Source: an uncultured Actinomycetes bacterium (GTDB lineage Bacteria > Actinomycetota > Acidimicrobiia > IMCC26256 > JACDBD01). From it: a stretch of 64,000 nucleotides of DNA. Made by a program: the position numbers and the translations under genes. Position 1 is the first letter of the stretch. Each line of letters opens with the position of its first letter. The stretch is from positions 710,793 to 774,792 of the forward strand of contig CAWAGI010000001.1 in the NCBI GenBank assembly GCA_963781615.1, in the 5' to 3' direction. The notes under the pieces were generated by a model. The model did no database searches, had not been told where the DNA came from, and worked only from the letters and a program-made list of their open reading frames with translations. Below are positions 295 through 46,441 of this stretch, piece after piece.

Positions 295-1218
295 TCAGCC
301 CAGCCCGATCGTCTGCAGAACGCCGTTGAGCTGGATCCCGGCAACGTTCTGACTCTGGTCGACCGATGTGTCGTTCGACTGGGTGTTGTTCGAGGTGTTG
401 CTACCAAGGAGCGTGAACTGCGGGTTGAAGTTCACGTTCTTGTTGTCGACGAAGGCGTGCGGCTTGTTCCACGCCTCCTGCTCGAGCTTGCCGTTCGACT
501 GGTCGGCGTCGTTCGACGGGTCGATCGGTGGGCCCACCCGGATCGACTGTCCCGCGACGTTGACCTGAGCCGCCTTGACGTTCTGGCTCTGGTCGATCGA
601 CGTCTCGTTCGACTGGGTGTTCGTCGAGGTGTTGCTACCAAGGAGCGTGAACTGCGGGTTGAAGTTCACGTTCTTGTTGTCGACCCACGAGAACGCCCAG
701 TTGCTCGCGTCTTGCTCCAACTTCTCGTTCTTCTGATCCGCGTCGTTCGACAGCGGCGGACCGCCACCCCCCAGCCAAGCGGCCGGAGCGTGGTTCACCG
801 AAATGCCTTGCCACAGGAGGTTCACCTGTGCGCCCTTGACATTCTGGCTCTGGTCGAGCCACGTGCTGTTCGACTGGTCATTGGTCGAGTCGTTGGCCCC
901 CAACAGCGCGAACTGCGGGTTCTTGTTGATGTTCTTGTTGTCGATCCAGGCGAACGGCGAGTTGTGAGCGTCCTGCTCCAGCTTGCCGTTGCACTGGTCG
1001 GCGTCGTTCGACACCTCGCTGTGCGACTTCTTGCCGAACGAAGCGACGCCGTCGGACCACGGCACCTCTCGGGTCAAGCCGTCCATCAACATGGGCCGGC
1101 GGTTGTTCTCCTGACACGGCTGCTCATGACCCCCGTCGATGAACGCACCGCTCGTCTGTGACAGTGCCACGACGACGGTCGCTCCCACGATGGCGAGCAG
1201 CGCCACGAACTTACGCAT
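295..1218 (-). CDS. secreted Asn/Gln-rich tandem-repeat protein (3 x ~78 aa)
   Basis: 307-aa ORF with a signal-like N-terminus (MRKFVALLAIVGATVVVALSQTSGA). It carries three repeats of SNDADQxNxKLEQ..DNKNVNFNPQFTLLGSNTSxNTQSNxTSxDQSQNV. An exact 60-nt DNA repeat lies at 391-450 and 625-684, a 234-nt period. Confidence 0.75.
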   Translation of the reverse strand: MRKFVALLAIVGATVVVALSQTSGAFIDGGHEQPCQENNRRPMLMDGLTREVPWSDGVASFGKKSHSEVSNDADQCNGKLEQDAHNSPFAWIDNKNINKNPQFALLGANDSTNDQSNSTWLDQSQNVKGAQVNLLWQGISVNHAPAAWLGGGGPPLSNDADQKNEKLEQDASNWAFSWVDNKNVNFNPQFTLLGSNTSTNTQSNETSIDQSQNVKAAQVNVAGQSIRVGPPIDPSNDADQSNGKLEQEAWNKPHAFVDNKNVNFNPQFTLLGSNTSNNTQSNDTSVDQSQNVAGIQLNGVLQTIGLG

Positions 1219-6810: not shown

Positions 6811-9800
6811 TTGACCACTGTTCGCGTTCGCCCGGCCCACGACGGCGTTAGCCTGTGGAGCGAACAGCCCGGGGGGCTGGGGGGATATCGGGTGGGGCCG
6901 AAGCTGACGAGACGACGCCGGCACACGGAGACTGCCTCGCGCACGCCGCGCGATGACGACGCCCGCACCCAGGTCCCGGCGGACGACTCGGGCGAGCTCG
7001 TCATCCGGACCACCAGCGACGGCCGGTACACCTACGTCTCACCCTCCGTGCGGGACGTCCTCGGCTACGAGCCCGAGGAGCTGCTCGCGCAGGCACCGTT
7101 CGAGACCGTCCACCCGGACGACCTCAACCTGGTCGGCTCGGCCGGCGACCGGCTCGCCGCCGGCAGCGCGGCAGGAGTCGGTGCTGCTGCGGAAGCGACA
7201 CGCCGACGGTCACGACGTGTGGCTCGACGCCCGCATCGCCACGGTGCGCGACCCGGTCAGCGGCGAGGTCGTCGAGATCCATGCGACCGCGCGTGACGTC
7301 ACGACGCAGGTCGTCACCGAGCGCGCGCTGCAGCAGCGGGTCGGGGCCGAATCACTCATCGGTGACGTCTCCCGCGAGCTGCTCACGGCGAGCACCGACG
7401 AGATCGACGCCGTGGTGGTGCGCAGCCTGGAGCGGGCGGCCCGATTCGTCGGCGCCGAGCGGGCCAGCCTCGTGCTCGTGAGCCAGGACGGCGAGTCGGC
7501 GGTGAGGACCCACCAGTGGGCGACGGACCCCGAGTTCGAGCCCACCGAGAGCATGACCCGGATCGCATCCCTGCCCTGGCTCCTGGAGCGGTGCCGCGCC
7601 GGGGAGCTCGTGTTCGCGCGGTCGCTCGACGAGTTGCCGGCGGAAGCGGACGTCGAGCGGGCGGCGCTCGAGGGCGTGAGCAAGTCGCTGGCGTGCCTGC
7701 CGATCACGACCGAGGACCAGCTCACCGGCGGCCTCGCGTTCAACTGGATCAGCCGAGAGGCCGAGGACTGCACTCCCGCCCTGTCGACGCTCCGGGTCCT
7801 CGCCGACGTGCTCGTCGTCGCACTCGACCGCAAGCGCGCCGAGCAGGCGCGGGCGAGCTCAGAGGCGCGGTTCCGTTCACTCGTGCACGGCACGTCGGAT
7901 CTCATCGTCGTCACCGACCGCGACGGGATCACGCAGTACGTGAGCCCGTCAGTGCGGCAGTTCGGCTACACGGAGGACGCGGTGCTCGCGAAACCAGCGT
8001 TCGACTTCGTCCATCCGGACGACCTCGACCGTGTCGCCGAGCGGTTCCGAGCCACCATGACGGCCGACGCTCGCCGCGAGCCCATCGAGTTCCGGCTGCG
8101 GGACGGCGCCGGCGGTTGGAAGCTCGTCGAGGCGCTCGGCACCGACCAGCTCGACGACCCCGCGGTGCAGGGCGTCGTGATCAACGTCCGCGACATCACC
8201 GAGCGCAAGGAAGCCGAGAGCGCTCTCCGGGAGAACGAGGAGAGGTTCCGCGCACTCGTGCAGAACACGTCCGACGTGATCACGATGATGGACTCGGACG
8301 GGATGGTCACGTACGCAAGTCCGGCGATCGAGTCGATGTTCGGCGCGGAGCCCGGCCGGGTCATCGGAACCCGTGCGTTCGACTACATCCATCCCGACGA
8401 TCGTGAGCACCTGGCGAACGTGTACGCCGACGGGGTCGAACACCACCCGGGACGCGGCAAGGCCTTCCGGTACCGCATGCAGCATGCCGACGGGTCGTGG
8501 CGTCACGTCGAGACGATCGGCAACAACCTGCTCGGCGACCCCGCCGTGGGAGCGGTCGTGTTGACCACTCGGGACATCACGGAACGCCACACGGCGGCCG
8601 AGGCGTTGCGGCGGAGCGAAGAGCGCTTCCGCGCCCTGGTCCAACACGGGAGCGACATGATCACGGTGCTCGATGCGGACGGACGCGTCCTCTATGCGAG
8701 CCCGTCGGCCGGATCGATTCTCGGCTGGGAGGAGGGCGAGTATCTCGGGCGAACCACCTTTCGGTTGCTGCACCCGGAGGACCGCGAGCACGTCCGGCAG
8801 ACCTTTGCCGAGGCCGTCACCCGGCCCGGCTCCACGCAGACCATCCACTCGCGCATTCGGCACAGGAGCGGTGAGTACAGGCTCCTCGAGTCGATCGCCA
8901 CGAACCTGCTCGACGACCCGGCGGTGCGCGGCCTGGTCGTCAACAGCCGGGACATCACCGAGCGCCGGCAGCTCGAGAACGAGTTGCTCCAGTCACAGAA
9001 GATGGAGGCCGTCGGCCGGCTCGCCGGCGGCATCGCGCACGACTTCAACAACCTGCTGACGGCGATCGCGGGGTACACGGCCCTCCTCCTCGACGAGCAT
9101 CCCGAGGACGCTTCGCTCCGGGCGGATCTCGCCGAGATCGATCAGGCCGCGACGCGGGGCGCCGCGCTCGTCGACCAGCTGCTGTCATTCAGCCGGCGCA
9201 AGATGCTGATGCCGACGGTCCTCGATCTCAACGAGGTCGTCGAGTCCACCCGGGGGTTGCTGAGCCGGGTCATCGGCGCCGACGTGGAGCTCGTCACCCG
9301 CCTGGCGCGCAAGCTCGACGGGGTGCGTGCGGACCGCACGCAGCTCGAGCAGGTGCTCCTCAACCTGGCCGTGAACGCGCGGGACGCGATGCCGGAGGGT
9401 GGCCGCCTCGACATCGAGACCGCGAACGTGATGCTGCGGCGTCGCGACGTCGCCGGCCAGATCGACGCAACCGCGGGACCGCACGTGCTGCTCTTGGTGC
9501 GCGACTCCGGCGTGGGCATGGACCGGGAGACCCAGGCGCAGGTGTTCGAGCCGTTCTTCACCACGAAGGACATCGGCGAGGGCACCGGACTCGGGCTCTC
9601 GACGGCGTACGGGATCGTCACCCAGGCGGGCGGCCACATCTCGGTCGACAGCCGTCCCGGCGCCGGGACCACGTTCCGGGTCTACTTCCCGAAGGACAAG
9701 GACGACCCGCCGGCGTCGGCGCCGGGGGCAGGTGACGCGTCGCCGCGTACGGGGCGGGAGACGATCCTCCTCGTCGAAGACGAGTCGGCGGTGCGCAGCC

Positions 9801-36732: not shown

Positions 36733-37134
<402 letters not shown>

Positions 37135-39387: not shown

Positions 39388-40347
39388 TCAGCCGGCCGCC
39401 GCCTGCGATCGCCGCTCGAGCGTTGCGCTCGGTGACTCGCCGAACAGTGCCCGGTACTCACCGGCAAACCGACTCAGGTGCCAGAATCCGAAGTCGGACG
39501 CTGCACGGCTGACGGCGTCACGCACCGGGGGCCCCGAAAGAAGCGCGTTACGGACCTCGTGGAGTGCTGCGATGCGCAAGTAGGCGGTCGGTGACATACC
39601 GTAGGTCTCGTAGAACGCTTGGCGAACCCGCCGCTCCGATACAGCGGATGCCGCGCAAAGGTCGGCAAGCGTCACGCCTTGATATCGCGCTGCGGCTGCA
39701 TGTTCTTCGCACGCTCGAGCAATGCGCACACTATTGCGGCGCGCGTGCGGGACAGGCATTTCGCGGTTCGCGTCGCTGGTGAGCGACCGCGTTGCGAGCT
39801 CGAGCAGCGTATCGGCAATGATCGAAGCCTCGCGCCCGCTGCTCGTGTCCTCCTGCGCGTCACAAACCATACGGCGAACGCTGCCGAATCCGTTACGTAG
39901 CCGTGGCCAATCGGCGGCGTGCACCGCGCGGAACTCCCCTTGGTCTGGGAGGTCAAGTTCGACGCCGAGAGCTCGTGCCGTGCGATCTAGCGCTGTGAGC
40001 GGGAAGGAGATGAGCCCGAACTGGAACGGACCGGCGCTGGCACCCGCAACCTCCGTTGCCGGGCCATAAACGTTGAGAACGCCGGGGGCGAACGGTTCGC
40101 CGTTCAAGTGGCCGGACAGCTCGCGACGGAGGGGAGCCACGAGCGCGATGCGGTCGGCGAACGTCTCGCCACGTGTTACGACGGGAACCGAGTAGTCGCC
40201 GACTTCCACAAGAATCGGGTCTAGGTCGACCCTCACCAGATCGGCGCGAATGGCGCCCGGCCGCAGTGTCATCGGCGCCGTCCTCGCCGAGATGACTGGA
40301 TCGGCGAACTCATCCACGGTGGTGATCACCCGCCGGTCTGCCCACAT
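39388..40347 (-). CDS. AraC-family transcriptional regulator
   Basis: The ATG at 40347 is preceded by GGAGG. The C-terminal HTH pair reads VTLADLCAASAVSERRVRQAFYETYGMSPTAYLRIAALHEVRNALL...DFGFWHLSRFAGEYRALFGESP. Confidence 0.85.
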   Translation of the reverse strand: MWADRRVITTVDEFADPVISARTAPMTLRPGAIRADLVRVDLDPILVEVGDYSVPVVTRGETFADRIALVAPLRRELSGHLNGEPFAPGVLNVYGPATEVAGASAGPFQFGLISFPLTALDRTARALGVELDLPDQGEFRAVHAADWPRLRNGFGSVRRMVCDAQEDTSSGREASIIADTLLELATRSLTSDANREMPVPHARRNSVRIARACEEHAAAARYQGVTLADLCAASAVSERRVRQAFYETYGMSPTAYLRIAALHEVRNALLSGPPVRDAVSRAASDFGFWHLSRFAGEYRALFGESPSATLERRSQAAAG

Positions 40348-40453
40348 GTCCGACCTCCAACGCGGTGTCGGACTCTTGTACCGCGGGCTTGGCTGTCGGC
40401 TGTAGGGCAGTCCGACTGTTTGCACAGAGGACCTTGGTCACGAGAACAAAACA

Positions 40454-40549
40454 GCCGAATCCGGATAGCCCTTGCGACGCCGAACCGTCACGATCAGCTT
40501 GCACGACTAGCGACACCGTCGGAGCAATAGGTCAAAGGGGACTGCAGGT
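40454..40549 (+). promoter_or_regulatory. conserved leader element, copy A
   Basis: The sequence is GCCGAATCCGGATAGCCCTTGCGACGCCGAACCGTCACGATCAGCTTGCACGACTAGCGACACCGTCGGAGCAATAGGTCAAAGGGGACTGCAGGT. It is about 85% identical to copy C although the downstream genes are unrelated. Confidence 0.45.
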
Positions 40550-40613
40550 AGTGGGAGGATCGTTCCGGCAGGCGCAGGGGGCCGCGTCGCTCGTGGGCGC
40601 CGGCTAACAGCTG

Positions 40614-41342
40614 GTGCGTGTGGTCGCCGTCGGGACCGTGCATCTGCTCGCTTTCGGCTTCGAGTCGCAAGGCCGTTTGCCGCCCGACGCGATGAGCCGC
40701 CTTCACCGACTTCACGAACGTGGTGCGATCCGCTTGCTCGACGTCCTCTATGTCTCGAGGGACGAGCACGGGGTGCTCAGCCGGAAAAACGATGGTGAGG
40801 AACCCACAGTCAGCTCGGACCCGTCAGGGGCGACGCTGTGGCAGTTGCTCGAGGGCAACGGCGGCGACACGCTCCTGCCAGCATCCGTCGAGCTCCACAC
40901 CTCGTCCGAGGTCGGGCTCGACCTCCCAGCGGTAGAGGCCCTCGCCTATCAAATCGAACCCGGCACCTCCGCGCTACTCATCCTGGTCGAGATGCAATGG
41001 GCAACCGAGCTGCTCGAAGAGGTCGTTGCGGCAGGCGGCTTTCCAATCGTGTTCGGCTGCCTCCAGCCAGAGACGATGCTCGTCATTGGCCCGCAGCTTG
41101 CCACGGCCGCGGAGGCTGTGGTTGCTGCCGAGACCAAGTCCACGGCACACGGGATCGCGACGCTGGATTCCCTAGCGAGCCGACCCGAGATGTCGTCGAC
41201 CATCGTGGCCCAGGTTGTTCGTGCGCTCGTGGTCGCGCGTCTCATCGACCCGGCGCACATCGACGACACGATCAACGCTCTCGCCGATGCCGGTCTCGTC
41301 CCGTCGCCGTCGGTGGGAAACGATCAACCCCGGGGTCAATGA
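40614..41342 (+). CDS. DUF6325/DUF1269-like domain protein
   Basis: 242 aa. The N-terminal half resembles the protein at 50549 (…LLAFGFES…IRLLDVLYVSRDEHG…GTSALLILVEMQWA…). Confidence 0.7.
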   Translation: MRVVAVGTVHLLAFGFESQGRLPPDAMSRLHRLHERGAIRLLDVLYVSRDEHGVLSRKNDGEEPTVSSDPSGATLWQLLEGNGGDTLLPASVELHTSSEVGLDLPAVEALAYQIEPGTSALLILVEMQWATELLEEVVAAGGFPIVFGCLQPETMLVIGPQLATAAEAVVAAETKSTAHGIATLDSLASRPEMSSTIVAQVVRALVVARLIDPAHIDDTINALADAGLVPSPSVGNDQPRGQ

Positions 41343-41617
41343 CCAGAGGACGCCAGCTTCTCAGACAGCGCGGCCATCAGCGCCACCGAGCGAAGCGACT
41401 GGCCTCGCTACAAACGCGCCGTCATCGCCTCCGACGTGCCCAACGGCCCCTGAGCCGAGTACACCCGCCCGTGGGCCGCCGCGAAACTCCCGATCAGAGC
41501 AGAACGCATCAGGGAGTCCCGAGCAGCGTCCTGGCGCGACGCGACTCTAGGGTTCGAGTTCGATCTCGCCCGGTTTGTCAAATTGCAAATTCGAGTGAAC
41601 TCCGTACGAGGCTCGAC

Positions 41618-42451
41618 ATGTCCAAGAAGCACAAGCACGATCTGGGATCTGACGTGAACGCGGAGGTCGCGCCGACGGGAAGGATGAAGAAGAAGGAATA
41701 CCAGCGTGAGCTACGCCGCCTCCACGGTGAGCTCGTGGCAATGCAGGAGTGGGTGAAGCGCGCGGGCGCGAAGGTGTGCGTCGTGTTCGAAGGCCGCGAC
41801 ACCGCTGGCGAGGGCGGGACGATCAAGGCGATCATTGAGCGCGTGAGCCCACGCGTGTTCCGCGTCATCGCGCTGCCCGCGCCGACCGAGCGTGAGAAGT
41901 CCCAGATGTACGCGCAGCGATTCATCGGTCACTTCCCCGCCGCCGGCGAGATCGTGATCTTCGACCGAAGCTGGTACAACCGCGCGGGCATCGAGCGGGT
42001 TATGGGATTCTGCAACGAAGAGGAGTCGGCGCGCTTCCTCCGTCTCGTTCCGTCTTTCGAGAGGGCGATGGTCGATTCCGGCATCCTGCTGGTGAAGTAC
42101 TGGGGCGAGGTCGATCAGCAGGAACAGATGCGCCGGCTCAAGAGCCGGATTGACGACCCCCGCAAGATCTGGAAGCTCTCGGACATGGATCTCAAGTCCT
42201 ACACACACTGGTACGACTACTCGCGTGCGCGTGACGATATGTTCGCCGCGACACACACCGCATGGGCGCCGTGGTACCTCGCGTGGACCGACGACAAGAA
42301 ACGCGGTCGCCTCAATGTCATCGCCCACCTGCTTCAACACGTGCCCTACGAACCGCTGGAACGCAAACCGGTCACCCTCCCCGACCGTCGGAAGGCCCAC
42401 GGGTACGAGGAGGCCGACCTGTCCGCGCTCACGATCCCAGCACCGTACTGA
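41618..42451 (+). CDS. ppk2: polyphosphate kinase 2 (PPK2 family)
   Basis: The sequence reads MSKKHKHD...VVFEGRDTAGEGGTIK...IFDRSWYNRAGIERVMGF...KIWKLSDMDL...APWYLAWTDDKKRGRLN. The 277-aa length is typical of one-domain PPK2. Confidence 0.92.
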   Translation: MSKKHKHDLGSDVNAEVAPTGRMKKKEYQRELRRLHGELVAMQEWVKRAGAKVCVVFEGRDTAGEGGTIKAIIERVSPRVFRVIALPAPTEREKSQMYAQRFIGHFPAAGEIVIFDRSWYNRAGIERVMGFCNEEESARFLRLVPSFERAMVDSGILLVKYWGEVDQQEQMRRLKSRIDDPRKIWKLSDMDLKSYTHWYDYSRARDDMFAATHTAWAPWYLAWTDDKKRGRLNVIAHLLQHVPYEPLERKPVTLPDRRKAHGYEEADLSALTIPAPY

Positions 42452-42472
42452 GCGCGAACGGGAGGACAGCGA

Positions 42473-42631
42473 ATGAGTGAAGCCCGCTGCGCAGTGTGCG
42501 AACGCCCACTTGCACCAGGCGATTGGGTGTACGAGACGAGACGCCAGGACAAGTGGGTCCACGGCGGCTGCCTGGACGTGTACAGCGCCCATTACTGGCC
42601 GGGTGAAGCGCCCGCGAGCCGAAAGCGGTAA
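42473..42631 (+). CDS. small Cys/His protein (52 aa)
   Basis: The ATG is preceded by GGAGGA 6 nt upstream. The sequence is MSEARCAVCERPLAPGDWVYETRRQDKWVHGGCLDVYSAHYWPGEAPASRKR. It is below the ORF-track size cut-off. Confidence 0.45.
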   Translation: MSEARCAVCERPLAPGDWVYETRRQDKWVHGGCLDVYSAHYWPGEAPASRKR

Positions 42632-43007
42632 ACCTTTCGAAACGCCGAGGAGATGAGGTGACTCCATCTTCCTGGCTAGCGCATCTCGCCTTGCGTCTCG
42701 AGTTCCCCACGCTTGTAGGGCGCAGCGTCGAAGTGTTCGAGTAGTTCCAGGGCCTCGCCCCGGCTGAGCGTCGGCGCGCCGAGCGGAAGCATCGCTAGCG
42801 ATCCCGCCGGTTCTTGACGGGTTCCGGGATCGGCAGCTCGGCCACCTGCCTTGACGCAAGCCGAACACGTGTGCTTGAAGTCTCCGCCGCGCTCGTCTAC
42901 TGGCTCCGGGCGAATGCGACCGGGCGGCCCGCGGCGCCGTTCAGACCCGACCCGGCTGGTGGAAGCAGGTCGCTCACGACGTGTCGACGACCCGACGGCG
43001 AGTAGTT

Positions 43008-43084
43008 GCCGAATCCGGATAGCCCGACTCCGGGGCTGGTCCGTAGGGTCGGGATCGGCACACAGTCCACCGTCGGGAGATCCC
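43008..43084 (+). promoter_or_regulatory. conserved leader element, copy B (shorter, diverged middle)
   Basis: It shares GCCGAATCCGGATAGCCC (18/18) and ..GATCGGCACAC..CACCGTCGGGAG with copy A, and it runs directly into the GTG at 43085. Confidence 0.35.
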
Positions 43085-43333
43085 GTGCTCGCATACGACT
43101 ACCCACTGCTTGGCGTGTTCTGGACCCTGGTCCTTGTGTCGTTCTTCTTCCTGGTGATCTTCGCGATCATCTGGGCGTTCATCGACAACTTCCGCCGCAA
43201 GGACCACAGCGGCTGGGCCAAAGCCGGCTGGTTCCTCTTCATTCTCTTCCTGCCCCTCCTCGGGGTCTTCTGCTACCTCATCGCTCGGCCCGCTGATGTG
43301 GACGTGCTGGAAGGGCAGCCCCAATACCAGTAG
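43085..43333 (+). CDS. PLDc_N-type small membrane protein (PLD nuclease N-terminal domain family)
   Basis: The sequence is VLAYDYPLLGVFWTLVLVSFFFLVIFAIIWAFIDNFRRKDHSGWAKAGWFLFILFLPLLGVFCYLIARP. Confidence 0.78.
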   Translation: MLAYDYPLLGVFWTLVLVSFFFLVIFAIIWAFIDNFRRKDHSGWAKAGWFLFILFLPLLGVFCYLIARPADVDVLEGQPQYQ

Positions 43334-43896
43334 GAGGCGCGACGGACTGGATTCGGCCGGTCCGCGCGGTGACCGCGCTGTCCTTCGGGTCTGGTCGCAG
43401 TTGGCAAAGGAGCACCGCCGAGTGGTCTATCGCGAGCCCGTCGGATCAATTTCATGCCGACTAGTACCCAAGGAACACCGCCGTTCGTCCGCGGAAAGGC
43501 GACGAGCGTGTCCAGCCACACCGTCCGCGACCGCGCGACCCACGTCCATCGAGCACGCGCTGCAGGACCTAGACCTCTAGACACTCGAGGCGCTTCGTAT
43601 CGATCCTCAGCAGTCCGAACCTCGCAACACTGCCGCGCTCACGGCAGGGCGGCATCCCTCTTGGCCTCAATCGAGTGTTCGCGGCATGGAGCTTCGACGA
43701 CCCGCACGGAACGTGACCTAGGGACTCGAATCCGAGTCTCGCGCCAATCGGTTGCCCCGCCGGCGTCGGGCCCTAGTCGTGATCCCGGTGATCTTAAGCG
43801 TCGTCCTGTTGCCCATTGCAGGCTAACGGTGTGGATGCGACACGTGGTCCTCGATGCGGACGAGTACGTCGACACGGTCGCGCCGTTGGCGAAGCG

Positions 43897-44202
43897 ATGA
43901 CCACGAGCTACCGAGCCACGGGCGACGACGGGACCTCGGTCCAGGTCTCGCTCATCGACCCAGACACCCGGACTTGGGAAGTCGTCGTTCAACATCCGCC
44001 GTCGCGGTTCGGCCGTCTGATGGCCGAGCTCAGGCGTCACAGCCCTTCCCACCACCAGGTCTCCTCGGCGCGCCGGGAACGCCACGAAGTTCGCGACCCA
44101 CAGCTCGAGGACAGCCTGCGCGCAAGCCTCGGCGGGCCTCGGTCGGCTGAGGAACTCCTCCATCGCATCCGGGCCGACCACGGTCCAGCCGCTGCGGGCT
44201 GA
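43897..44202 (+). CDS. hypothetical protein (101 aa)
   Basis: Third-codon-position GC is clearly higher in this frame than in the overlapping minus-strand ORF 43639..44205. I do not recognise a family, and the RBS is weak. Confidence 0.4.
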   Translation: MTTSYRATGDDGTSVQVSLIDPDTRTWEVVVQHPPSRFGRLMAELRRHSPSHHQVSSARRERHEVRDPQLEDSLRASLGGPRSAEELLHRIRADHGPAAAG

Positions 44203-44282
44203 CAATGCCGTATTCGCCCTCCTCGTCCGTCTGCCGCGGCGTTCGAAGCGCGCGGGCGTGACGCCATCGAAGTGGAGGCACC

Positions 44283-45660
44283 GTGACTACAGATGCAGCA
44301 AAAGAGCCTTCACCCGTCCCGATGCGCCGGCGCCTGGCGGCCATCGTGGCGCTGGTGACGTCGGTAGTTCTCGCCCTCTACGTCCTCGCGGTGCTCTTCG
44401 GGCACGGCGCGGATCTGTTGTTCGGACTCATCGGCGTGAGCGTCGCGCTCGCGGGCGGGTGGTGGTTGGTCACAGAGAGGATGCCGCGGCGTCTCTTCGG
44501 GATCGTCAGCGTTGTCGTCGGCCTGGTCGCGCTCGGCGTGATCATCGCGGCGAACGCTCGACGGTGCGGATCGCATCGCCATTCGAATCGTGATCCTGGT
44601 CGCGCTCATGGCCGTGACGCTTGCCTGCGCTCGCGGTGCGATGGTGCAGGACCTCGATCGGCTCGACGTCCGCGTCCGCGCTGGTGGGCGACCGCGCCAC
44701 GCGGTGTTGCTGTGCAACCCGAAGTCGGGCGGCGGCAAGGTCAAGAAGTTCGGCCTGGTCGAACTGGCGCACGAGCTCGGCGTGGAGGCGGTGATGCTCG
44801 AACCCGGTCGCGACCTCGAACAGCTGGCACGCGACGCCATCGCGCGCGGTGCGGACTGCCTGGGCATGGCCGGCGGTGACGGTTCGCAAGCGCTGGTGGC
44901 GTCGATCGCTATCGAGCACGGATTGCCCTTCGTTTGCGTCAGCGCAGGTACACGCAACCACTTCGCTCTCGACCTCGGACTCGACCGCGACGATCCTCGC
45001 GAGTCGATGTTCGCCTTCCGTGATGCGGTCGAACGCCGTGTCGACTACACGACCGTCAACGACCGTCTCTTCGTCAACAACGTGTCCCTTGGCGTGTACG
45101 CGGAGATCGTGCAGCAAGAGTCGTACCGCGACGCCAAGCGCGAGACGACGAAGGCGCTGCTTCCCGAGATGTTGAACCGCCACTCCGAACCGTTCGATCT
45201 GCAGTTCACGACAAGAGACGGCGAAGGCGTCGACGGCGCCATCATCGTCATGGTCTCGAACAACCCGTATGTGATCGGCGTGTCGGCCGACAACGCCGAA
45301 CGCCGCCGCCTCGATTCGGGCGAGCTCGGTGTCTTCGCGGTGACCACGAGGACCGGCAGCGAGGCGGCGCGGCTCTTCGCCGCCGCCGCGATCGGGGGAC
45401 GAAAGCGCAGCACATTCTGGAAGGAGTTCACCGCGACCAGCTTCAAGGTGCGCTCACGATCCGGCACGGCCTTCGCAGGCGTCGACGGCGAAGCGCTGCA
45501 GATGCCGACGCCGCTCCAGTTCCACATCCACGCCCGCGGCCTCACGCTGCTCGTTCCCGCCGGGAACCTCGAGGCCGCCGAACGCCGACGCGCCCGCGAC
45601 GTCAGCCCCGGCGACCTCCTCGCCGTCGCTGCCGGCCACGAGCCGAAGCGTCGCATTTGA
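44283..45660 (+). CDS. membrane-anchored diacylglycerol/lipid kinase (DAGK_cat, YegS/LCB5-like); frame break ~44545-44560
   Basis: The TM N-terminus is in ORF 44283..44879 (…LAAIVALVTSVVLALYVLAVLFG…GIVSVVVGLVALGVIIAA). The kinase domain is in ORF 44590..45660 (AVLLCNPKSGGGK...GMAGGDGSQALV...VSAGTRNHFALDLG). Confidence 0.8.
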
Positions 45661-45846
45661 GCCACCGCCACACCGTGAGCCGACTGCGCCGCTGCTCTGG
45701 CGCGAGGTCCTGAACATCTCGGCAGCCTCCAAGCGGCGCGGGCGAGGCGGTTGTGGTCGGGACTGCTATCGGACCACGCCATCTACGACCTAGCCGATCG
45801 CGGCCACCCGGGTCCCTTCAGGCGCCGACGCGTGATTCCCGACCGC

Positions 45847-45943
45847 GCCGAATCGGGATAGCCCTCGCGGCGCTGAACCGTCACGATCGGGTCGCACAAC
45901 TGGCGACATCGCGGGAGCAATGCGTCAAAAGGGGATCTCAGGT
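45847..45943 (+). promoter_or_regulatory. conserved leader element, copy C
   Basis: The sequence is GCCGAATCGGGATAGCCCTCGCGGCGCTGAACCGTCACGATCGGGTCGCACAACTGGCGACATCGCGGGAGCAATGCGTCAAAAGGGGATCTCAGGT. It lies 73 nt upstream of GTG 46016. Confidence 0.45.
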
Positions 45944-46015
45944 GGCGTGACGCCATCGTTGGCCGGATCATCGACGCAGGGTCGGTCCGTGAGGACCTAC
46001 GAAGGAGGATCCAGC

Positions 46016-46441
46016 GTGACGCAGCAAACCTATGGACAGGAATATGGACAAGAGACCGAGCGCACCGGATGGACGGGATGGGTCGTCTTCGCCGGGGTGA
46101 TGATGCTCATCGGGGGATCGCTGGCCTCGATCTTCGGGATCGTCGCGATCGTCAACGACGACTGGGTGGTGTTCACGAACAGAAATGCGGTGTCCATCGA
46201 CCTGACGACTTGGGGATGGATCCAGCTCATCGGGGGCATCGTCGTTTTCCTAGCCGGCTTGGGCGTGTTCACCGGCAGTGTCCTCGCAAGGACAGTCGGA
46301 GTCATCGTCGCCTCGCTCAGCCTGATCGGCAGTTTCCTGTGGCTTCCGGTGTACCCGATCTGGGCCATCATCGTTATCACGATCGACGCCCTCGTCATCT
46401 GGGCGCTGACCGCCCACGGCGGCGAGATGCGCAGCTACTGA
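46016..46441 (+). CDS. actinobacterial 4-TM membrane protein (DUF7144-like; family name from memory)
   Basis: The GTG at 46016 is preceded by GAAGGAGGA. The sequence reads ...GWTGWVVFAGVMMLIGGSLASIFGIVAIVNDDWVV...YPIWAIIVITIDALVIWALTAHGGEMRSY. Confidence 0.78.
   Translation: MTQQTYGQEYGQETERTGWTGWVVFAGVMMLIGGSLASIFGIVAIVNDDWVVFTNRNAVSIDLTTWGWIQLIGGIVVFLAGLGVFTGSVLARTVGVIVASLSLIGSFLWLPVYPIWAIIVITIDALVIWALTAHGGEMRSY

Follow-up and report, generated by a model that had tools for sequence, protein, structure and literature searches.

The 64,000-nt stretch of DNA analysed here (the window) carries three copies of an 18-nt box, GCCGAATC(C/G)GGATAGCCC, all on the + strand (at 40454, 43008 and 45847), and, judging from sequence comparison, each copy is probably an activator-dependent promoter in which the box is the site for the neighbouring AraC-family regulator. 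In the proposed mechanism, the box would be the single asymmetric binding site of the adjacent AraC/XylS-family protein, ending 17 nt ahead of a sigma-A-type -10 (nAnnnT) and overlapping the -35 position, where a consensus hexamer is absent. The bound regulator would then recruit or stabilise RNA polymerase in a class II manner, and a small local regulon consisting of the DUF6325-like gene (probably with PPK2), the PLDc_N gene and the DUF7144 gene would be switched on together by a presumed signal. The corresponding features are listed in Table 1.

Table 1. Boxes, predicted promoter and leader elements, and associated genes in the window.
Feature	Position	Strand	Remarks
AraC/XylS-family regulator gene, 319 aa (start shared with homologues)	39388..40347	-	divergent from site A
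Site A, box GCCGAATCCGGATAGCCC	40454..40471	+	27.1 bits; predicted position ~ -48 to -31
-10-like hexamer CACGAT	40489..40494	+	17 nt past box A; predicted start ~40501
Predicted 5'UTR of A transcript	40495..40550	+	blocks GCACGACT(A/G)GCGAC, GGAGCAAT; SD-like AAAGGGGA at 40534-40541
Candidate upstream ORF, 18 codons GTG...TAA (MGGSFRQAQGAASLVGAG)	40551..40607	+	ends 6 nt ahead of main GTG
DUF6325-like gene, proposed target of promoter A	40614..41342	+	Pfam weak, 3.9e-6
PPK2	41618..42451	+	behind DUF6325-like gene, same strand
Site B, box GCCGAATCCGGATAGCCC	43008..43025	+	30.8 bits
-10-like hexamer TAGGGT	43044..43049	+	18 nt past box B; predicted start ~43056
PLDc_N small membrane protein gene, proposed target of promoter B	43085..43333	+	Pfam PLDc_N 1.2e-7
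Site C, box GCCGAATCGGGATAGCCC	45847..45864	+	25.2 bits
-10-like hexamer CACGAT	45882..45887	+	17 nt past box C; predicted start ~45894
Upstream-ORF remnant in copy C, GTG GCG TGA	45942..45950	+	two codons, then stop
DUF7144 membrane protein gene, proposed target of promoter C	46016..46441	+	Pfam DUF7144 9.1e-37

Three copies of a conserved element had been claimed in an earlier note on this DNA, and their reality is borne out: CCGAATCSGGATAGCCC matches at 40455, 43009 and 45848 (+), and the box searched with up to 3 mismatches has just those three matches in 64 kb, where 0.49 would be expected and where 0/100 shuffled sequences reached three. A PWM derived from relatives recovered no further site of at least 10 bits within the window. 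The description of the element as a ~95-nt leader in three copies holds for A and C, whereas copy B has the box only, sharing the 18 nt (as found by local alignment) plus the short strings GATCGGCACAC and CACCGTCGGGAG, as had been reported; site B also has the T at position 0 (43007). Each of the three copies thus consists of a box and its -10 hexamer, the long leader being common to A and C only.

An exact 18-mer scan of the genome collection returned 105 loci, nearly all of them chance or coding matches, with just L087 and L047 as true relatives; L010 and L103 were rejected as such, being devoid of both the T at position 0 and gene context. The coding matches include a superoxide-dismutase-like gene and a conserved mycobacterial gene. 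Chance matches were reused as a negative control. From the 35 non-redundant instances adjoining AraC orthologues, the conserved core of the box is T-GCC-N6-GGATA-G: positions 0-4 (TGCCG) and 10-15 (GGATAG) are 86-100% conserved, with T0 at 86% and G1, C2, C3, G10, G11, A12, T13 and A14 each at 100% (n=35). Among 102 control copies, the T at position 0 drops to 10%.

The distance between the box and the -10 is fixed. An nAnnnT hexamer (-10-like; CACGAT, TAGGGT) is located exactly 17 nt past the box in 27/35 instances, as compared to 2/102 among exact box copies from unrelated genomes; a further 4 instances have it at offset 18, and any other offset from 5 to 39 accounts for at most 3 instances each (n=35). 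Within the hexamer, A2 occurs in 77% and T6 in 83% of instances (n=35), and C or G predominates at the first base, where T is rare, for which reason these hexamers are counted as weak. Housekeeping (sigma-A) promoters of actinobacteria combine a TAnnnT -10 with an nTGACn -35, the two being ~17 nt apart (PMC8079986); here, the -35 position carries a TAGCCC-like sequence rather than TTGACn, and this, together with the C/G-first -10, fits an activator-dependent promoter. Because the hexamer lies 17 nt past the box, the box is predicted to cover the -35 position, in keeping with a class II activator site. A sigma-70 consensus scan retrieved no promoter in 40200-46200, which is uninformative since both hexamers must match and activator-dependent promoters are therefore missed.

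In an alignment of six leaders (window A, window C, L106, L190, L192 and L193), CGTCACGAT and the box are invariant and the intervening spacer varies. Promoter B has a predicted 5'UTR of ~29 nt with the SD GGGAG, and TAGGGT/TAGTGT is likewise found in L106 and L190. All sites face a gene start, at a distance of 21-230 nt. An ATG comes 7 nt behind the hexamer at L123 and L197 (DUF6325) and at L087 and L197 (SulP), an arrangement that fits leaderless mRNAs in which the box would be left untranscribed.

The product of the divergent gene is recognised by Pfam HTH_18 (4.5e-16) and HTH_AraC, and its DNA-binding half is nearest to the NCBIfam families AndR (3.8e-21) and EutR (2.1e-20), both far under the family cut-offs; 217 homologues were found at E <=1e-10. 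When relatives were searched, at least one site was present at 15/15 AraC-orthologue loci of >=6 kb (50-100% identity), and site density amounted to 12.5/100 kb at such loci versus ~0.4/100 kb for non-seed matches in unrelated loci (~30-fold), the PWM for these density and locus counts having been trained on the same loci and first detection having relied on the window box alone (<=4 mismatches). L087, which was found by box alone, has an AraC gene between its boxes. Moreover, TGCC-N6-GGATA fits 8/9 specified positions of TGCA-N6-GGNTA, the half-site of XylS and of Rhodococcus CphR, the latter having sites at -35 to -49 and -55 to -69 (PMC4514859; PMC6205950). The suggestion in the earlier note of a shared promoter/operator linked to the divergent AraC gene is accordingly backed by the fixed 17-nt spacing, the half-site match and the co-occurrence with AraC orthologues, although a shared location does not establish this particular regulator as the one binding the box. 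The notion that a box variant (TAGCCC versus TAGTTC) tracks the AraC lineage was rejected, TAGTTC being confined to one orthologous promoter (SHOCT gene).

Pfam upheld the gene labels given previously (AraC/HTH_18, DUF6325 with a weak match, PLDc_N and DUF7144). At orthologue loci, the genes behind the sites are DUF6325, PLDc_N, SHOCT, SulP, MIP, GH15, PPK2 or MFS. The box precedes DUF6325 orthologues in L106, L107, L110, L190, L192, L193, L194, L087 and L197, and PLDc_N genes in L087, L106, L107, L109, L190, L194 and L197; L200 has DUF6325, SulP and PLDc_N genes and no box. In the window, PPK2 may be co-transcribed with the DUF6325-like gene, and the DUF7144 gene has a strong SD of its own, GAAGGAGGA. 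A literature search retrieved nothing on DUF6325, on DUF1269 with AraC or on SHOCT with AraC in Actinobacteria.

Overlap with the -35 position suits repression too, and L047 contains three boxes with an AraC gene absent from the 8 kb examined, such that the box could serve as operator for some other transcription factor, or else as a site from which the AraC protein represses by occluding the -35 region. We give this a small chance, as the half-site form is of the AraC/XylS type, and a register held strictly at 17 nt, with one orientation to the -10, is typical of activators touching RNA polymerase, whereas repressor operators tolerate variable placement. Furthermore, the missing -35 consensus and weak -10 indicate promoters that need help, and the annotated neighbourhoods contain no further regulator family repeatedly. 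Activation by the adjacent AraC protein is presumed.

ECF promoters are of the GGAAC-N16-17-CGT type and SigF promoters of the form GTTT-N15-17-GGGTA, and the box is unlike either consensus. This speaks against the box being the extended -35 of an alternative (ECF or other) sigma promoter with a -10 of (C/G)A(C/T)GAT and no involvement of an AraC protein, an option of the earlier note that found no support and that we regard as unlikely, even if two blocks at fixed spacing are reminiscent of sigma-specific promoters, the target genes resemble a stress regulon and the -10 hexamers are more alike than nAnnnT alone demands. The conserved part is bipartite, measures 16-19 bp and ends ahead of the -35 hexamer position, and the stretch of the box with the lowest conservation falls within the would-be -35 positions (TAGCCC, TAGCGG, TAGTTC). 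In addition, sigma/anti-sigma genes occur in none of the annotated neighbourhoods, in which the AraC gene is always present.

When aligned, copies A (40454-40549) and C (45847-45943) match at 81 positions and differ at 14, with 3 gap columns (82.7%; 83% over 87 nt when ungapped); the earlier note had given ~85%, 14 substitutions and 1 gap. This longer similarity starts precisely with the first base of the box and has faded by ~40579/45981. The SD, start and stop position of the upstream ORF are kept in 5/5 orthologous leaders; its variable sites are distributed over the codon positions as 6:9:10, by which peptide constraint is not visible, and selection at the peptide level finds no support. 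The third codon is TGA in copy C and CGA in the closest A-type leaders (L106, L190, L192). Distant gene-A orthologues (L107, L110, L194) are entirely without the long leader. None of the DUF7144 orthologues carries a box ahead of it, homologues in L198-L200 (78-80% identity) included, and copy C is therefore datable no further than lineage-specific. The extra A-C similarity (~80 nt) is read as a lineage-specific duplication that took in the promoter, the 5'UTR and the beginning of a candidate upstream ORF of 18-21 codons, rather than as a further type of element. A duplication that includes coding sequence had been named as an argument against the element, and for a leader RNA this is nearly what was found, as the similarity covers the candidate upstream-ORF start.

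That the ~95-nt element acts as a regulatory RNA in cis, be it a riboswitch, a thermometer or a leader bound by an sRNA, produced from a promoter further upstream, is very improbable. In its favour, conservation over ~50 nt past the -10 hexamer exceeds that of the promoter spacer in the six leaders, 93% of cells allow the short hairpin GTCGC-N7-GCGAC to form, and the leaders in A and C are 140-150 nt long. The Rfam scan proposed in the earlier note gave no family over the element region, either at gathering score, when the whole window was searched, or at E <=10 (40300-46200), unrelated noise aside. Folding is no better than that of shuffles (z = +0.92, +0.35, +0.02, -0.46, -0.70), and changes on both sides were seen in 0/16 RNAalifold pairs (covariation term only -0.39 kcal/mol) and in 0/5 hairpin pairs, these covariation tests on six closely related sequences being of low power. 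The box and the -10 are all that the three copies and the 35 instances elsewhere have in common, with the start codon 21 to 230 nt away; transcription is predicted to start downstream of the box, and the distant gene-A orthologues do without the leader altogether. The cis-regulatory RNA option of the earlier note finds no support. The only Rfam match was RNase P, at 36735-37132. A pairing of the box with downstream RNA sequence, suggested by L087 (AATCCGATTCG), was also rejected, being not general and without folding signal.

The three boxes are thus most likely part of an ordinary bacterial gene switch rather than a new RNA element, and the putative regulon is new but of a known kind. On a broader and tentative view, which we consider rather doubtful, the uncharacterised AraC/EutR-like protein would be the master activator of an undescribed stress/dormancy-type regulon in Acidimicrobiia and other Actinomycetota, acting from a single half-site despite its large sensor domain; the window lineage would have added, as a second layer, a conserved 5'UTR block and an upstream ORF of 18-21 codons in translational coupling with the DUF6325-like gene, and the promoter-leader cassette would later have been copied before DUF7144. 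DUF6325/DUF1269, PLDc_N, SHOCT, DUF7144, SulP, MIP, GH15 and PPK2 may be members of such a regulon. The analysis provides a testable regulon and motif for an uncharacterised, widespread actinobacterial AraC subfamily, many members of which are mislabelled 'ethanolamine operon activator', joins DUF6325, DUF7144, PLDc_N-only proteins and SHOCT in one putative co-regulated set as a lead to their biology, and strikes one candidate from possible new RNA motifs; the understanding of AraC-type activation is unchanged.

JGI names many of the homologues EutR ('ethanolamine operon transcriptional activator'). This regulator resembles EutR in belonging to the AraC family, in its similar length and in the alignment of its C-terminal 150 aa (2.1e-20), but it scores 73 bits against a cut-off of 319 bits, and eut genes are present in none of the annotated neighbourhoods; the EutR name is annotation carry-over and no evidence of function. 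MarA, SoxS and Rob, when acting in the class II mode, likewise use a single asymmetric site of ~15-20 bp per promoter, in fixed orientation and at a fixed distance from the -10 and placed, as is predicted here, over the -35; one regulator there serves dispersed stress-related genes, as is proposed here. The marbox motif is GCAC-N7-CAA or TAAA, also given as GCAC-N7-(C/T)AA(A) (PMC4514859), whereas the motif here is TGCC-N6-GGATA; moreover, MarA and SoxS consist of a DNA-binding domain only, in contrast to the ~200-aa N-terminal region found here, and these regulators belong to another phylum.

XylS (at Pm) and CphR (at cphA2A1) are bound as dimers to two tandem direct repeats ~21 bp apart, whereas here there is one site per promoter: a PWM scan of the 35 sites at offsets -69 to +59 gave forward matches of 6 bits or more at offset 0 only, so the stoichiometry differs from that of the closest characterised systems. 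Apparent distal repeats noticed on inspection, located upstream of B and spaced 17 bp, were not reproduced across sites. XylS and CphR target aromatic-catabolism operons, as opposed to the small membrane/stress genes, transporters, GH15 and PPK2 seen here, and differ in that the present regulator is an equivalog of no named family. The likeness to these two systems lies in a 15-bp asymmetric half-site whose two submotifs, of 4 bp and 5 bp, are separated by 6 bp, in a proximal site next to or over the -35 (-35 to -49 for CphR; here predicted at ~ -48 to -34 for the 15-bp core), in an N-terminal domain besides the two-HTH DNA-binding domain, and in a regulator gene that is adjacent and often divergent.

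The 18-nt box with the core T-GCC-N6-GGATA-G occurs three times in the window, upstream of a DUF6325-like gene (copy A), a PLDc_N gene (copy B) and a DUF7144 gene (copy C), the gene labels of the earlier note, including that of an AraC/HTH_18 gene divergent from copy A, being correct. No further match with up to 3 mismatches was present in the 64 kb, where 0.49 matches in all would be expected, and three such matches were obtained in 0 of 100 shuffles, which confirms the three copies that this note had proposed. Its claim of an extended common element held for A and C, whose alignment of 98 columns has 81 matches, 14 mismatches and 3 columns with gaps (82.7% identity; 83% over 87 nt when ungapped). 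Their similarity begins precisely at base 1 of the box and fades by approximately 40579/45981. It did not hold for copy B, which in local alignments had in common with A or C the box alone, plus the short strings reported in that note.

Features of the window and of loci in related genomes (coordinates refer to the window unless a locus is named)
Feature	Position	Strand	Remarks
Box GCCGAATC(C/G)GGATAGCCC	40454, 43008, 45847	+	sequence scan
AraC/HTH_18 gene	39388-40347		divergent from A; 319 aa, extent set by homologues
Candidate upstream ORF	40551-40607; L106 about 9726-9797 (-)		also in L190, L192, L193
Conserved 5'UTR block	40501-40545, 45894-45935		six-leader alignment
Opposite-strand box pairs	L047 1703-1745; L087 4070-4157; L197 6958-7009, 9946-9990		back to back
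Box-like site TGCCGAATCCGGATCGTC	L197 ~9039-9056	-	23 bits; within MIP gene 3' end
Diacylglycerol-kinase-like gene	44283-45660		split over two frames (transmembrane N-terminus 44283 to about 44555; DAGK_cat part 44590-45660); looks like a 1-nt frameshift (pseudogene, or error of the long-read assembly)
RNase P RNA class A, bacterial	36735-37132	+	244 bits, E 3.1e-78
Three direct repeats	298-1012		units ~220 nt, spacing 234/261, 70-80% identical; probably repeated protein domains
Three direct repeats	8079-8981		144-nt units, spacing 381/378, 64-70% identical; probably repeated protein domains
52-aa cysteine-containing ORF (MSEARCAVCERPLAPGDW...GGCLDVY)	42473-42631	+	directly 3' of PPK2; no Pfam or NCBIfam match; may be a zinc-ribbon-like small protein

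The box and a -10 hexamer (nAnnnT) downstream of it are best read as an activator-dependent sigma-A promoter, the -35 region of which would be replaced by a binding site for an AraC-family protein. Among 35 non-redundant box instances, positions 1-4 (GCCG) and 10-14 (GGATA) were conserved in 100%, position 0 was T in 86%, A5, A6 and T7 were conserved in 86-94%, G15 in 97% and C16 in 74%, and positions 8-9 and 17-18 were variable. The sole other conserved columns, located downstream of the box, form a hexamer nA..AT; nAnnnT was found exactly 17 nt past the box in 27 of the 35 instances and at 18 nt in 4 more, and at any other offset from 5 to 39 in at most 3. In a control set of 102 exact 18-mer copies from unrelated genomes, the hexamer was present at offset 17 in two, and T occupied position 0 in 10%. 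Alignment of six orthologous leaders showed the box and CGTCACGAT to be invariant and the intervening 14 nt to be variable. In Streptomyces, mapped transcription starts show a -10 sequence TAnnnT, whose first T is found in no more than 43-64% of promoters, and a spacer length of ~17 nt (PMC8079986). With such a spacer, the six final box bases fall at the place of the -35 hexamer, yet are unlike such a hexamer. The 15-bp core is predicted at about -48 to -34 if transcription starts ~7 nt past the -10 hexamer. In four cases from related loci (DUF6325 in L123 and L197, SulP in L087 and L197) the hexamer is followed by 7 bases and an ATG that lacks a suitably spaced Shine-Dalgarno sequence, the geometry of leaderless mRNAs; the SulP hexamer GAGGCT could alternatively be a Shine-Dalgarno sequence, so the SulP case is given no weight here.

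An exact-box scan of one genome per species returned 105 loci, almost all of them chance or coding matches, with two Acidimicrobiales MAGs (L087 and L047) representing genuine relatives. L087 contains three boxes inside 2.6 kb, one each in front of a PLDc_N gene, a DUF6325-like gene (with the AraC orthologue next in line) and a gene for a SulP transporter, and L047 contains three, two of which are back to back. In further loci, gathered via AraC protein homologues, contig look-ups and one metagenome scan, boxes (up to 4 mismatches) adjoin AraC orthologues down to 50% identity, every box being orientated toward a gene start 21-230 nt away, and the genes behind them are DUF6325/DUF6325-like, PLDc_N, SHOCT-type small proteins, GH15, PPK2, SulP, MFS and MIP. 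At least one site was present in 15 of 15 AraC-orthologue loci of at least 6 kb, site density there being 12.5 per 100 kb versus ~0.4 in unrelated loci (non-seed matches). The opposite-strand box pairs, overlapping to ~50 nt apart and with divergent genes on either side, would each form a compact control region, bidirectional and activator-dependent, driving those genes. The box-like site in L197 is directed antisense into the AraC gene, and may represent either an antisense promoter or a chance match.

The earlier note had also considered a cis-regulatory RNA. The hairpin GTCGC-N7-GCGAC, which it had drawn in the leader, can form in 93% of cells, but its variation is confined to one side, and the 16 pairs predicted by RNAalifold from six leaders include a compensatory change in 0. 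Folding of the three elements and two predicted 5'UTRs gave z-scores of +0.92, +0.35, +0.02, -0.46 and -0.70, i.e. no gain in stability over shuffles, an Rfam search of 40300-46200 returned nothing at gathering score or at E ≤10, and all copies have in common only the box and the -10 hexamer, the box lying upstream of the predicted start. The RNA reading is therefore not supported, and neither is the alternative sigma factor that had been offered as a further option.

The leader of A and C was also found at promoter A orthologues of the closest relatives (L106, L190, L192 and L193; AraC identity 78-86%), and in more distant promoter A orthologues (L107, L110 and L194) the leader is short, at ~30 nt. 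Its long form contains a Shine-Dalgarno-like AAAGGGGA followed 6-9 nt on by a GTG that opens a candidate upstream ORF, 18-21 codons long and present in five of five leaders, its Shine-Dalgarno sequence, start and stop being conserved, its length differing among orthologues by whole codons, and its end lying 3-6 nt ahead of the DUF6325-like start in the four orthologues with a locatable main start. The DUF6325-like orthologue in L106 is frameshifted, as the diacylglycerol-kinase-like gene of the window seems to be. The peptide sequence is without visible constraint, and variable sites divide over the codon positions as 6:9:10 (manual count), so that selection is possible only on the act of translation or on coupling to the main gene; such selection may exist, chance being the alternative. 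In copy C the upstream ORF reads GTG GCG TGA, the TGA standing opposite a CGA in the closest A-type leaders, and no box was found upstream of DUF7144 homologues (78-80% identity). Together with the leaders of the relatives, this cut ORF and the boxless homologues argue that copy C arose by lineage-specific duplication of the promoter, the 5'UTR and the beginning of the upstream ORF to a place before another gene, an event that would account for the extended A-C similarity without a shared RNA function. A 5'UTR block, GCACGACTGGCGAC...GGGAGCAAT (GCACGACT(A/G)GCGAC...GGAGCAAT), varies less than the promoter spacer across the six leaders and was matched by no structure or known motif.

The AraC protein has 217 homologues at E ≤1e-10, and the families nearest to its DNA-binding half are AndR (3.8e-21) and EutR (2.1e-20), both scores being far under the family cut-offs. 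Many homologues carry the JGI label 'ethanolamine operon transcriptional activator', which, since no eut genes were found in the homologue neighbourhoods examined, is probably annotation carry-over from EutR.

The XylS half-site, TGCA-N6-GGNTA, is the same in the actinobacterial CphR, where two repeats are located at -35 to -49 and -55 to -69 (PMC4514859, PMC6205950), and the box T-GCC-N6-GGATA agrees with it at 8 of the 9 specified positions. This match, the predicted placement at -35 and the adjacent AraC-family regulator point to an activator-dependent promoter, and the half-site match, the hexamer register and the presence of sites in all 15 orthologue loci support the first suggestion of the earlier note, a shared AraC promoter/operator. 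The neighbouring AraC-family protein would bind the box and thereby stand in for the -35 region; we infer binding, transcription starts, direction of regulation and signal alike. It is considered highly probable that each copy is a promoter carrying a transcription-factor site at -35, and likely that the site is bound by the neighbouring AraC protein, which would activate transcription from it. The proposed regulon and motif, on which no literature was found, are new and would belong to an uncharacterised AraC subfamily, AraC-type activation itself being of a known kind. XylS and CphR employ two repeats, whereas a single site per promoter is present here, a search of offsets -69 to +59 around the box having revealed no second repeat, and in this respect these promoters resemble the single-site promoters of the MarA/SoxS/Rob type.
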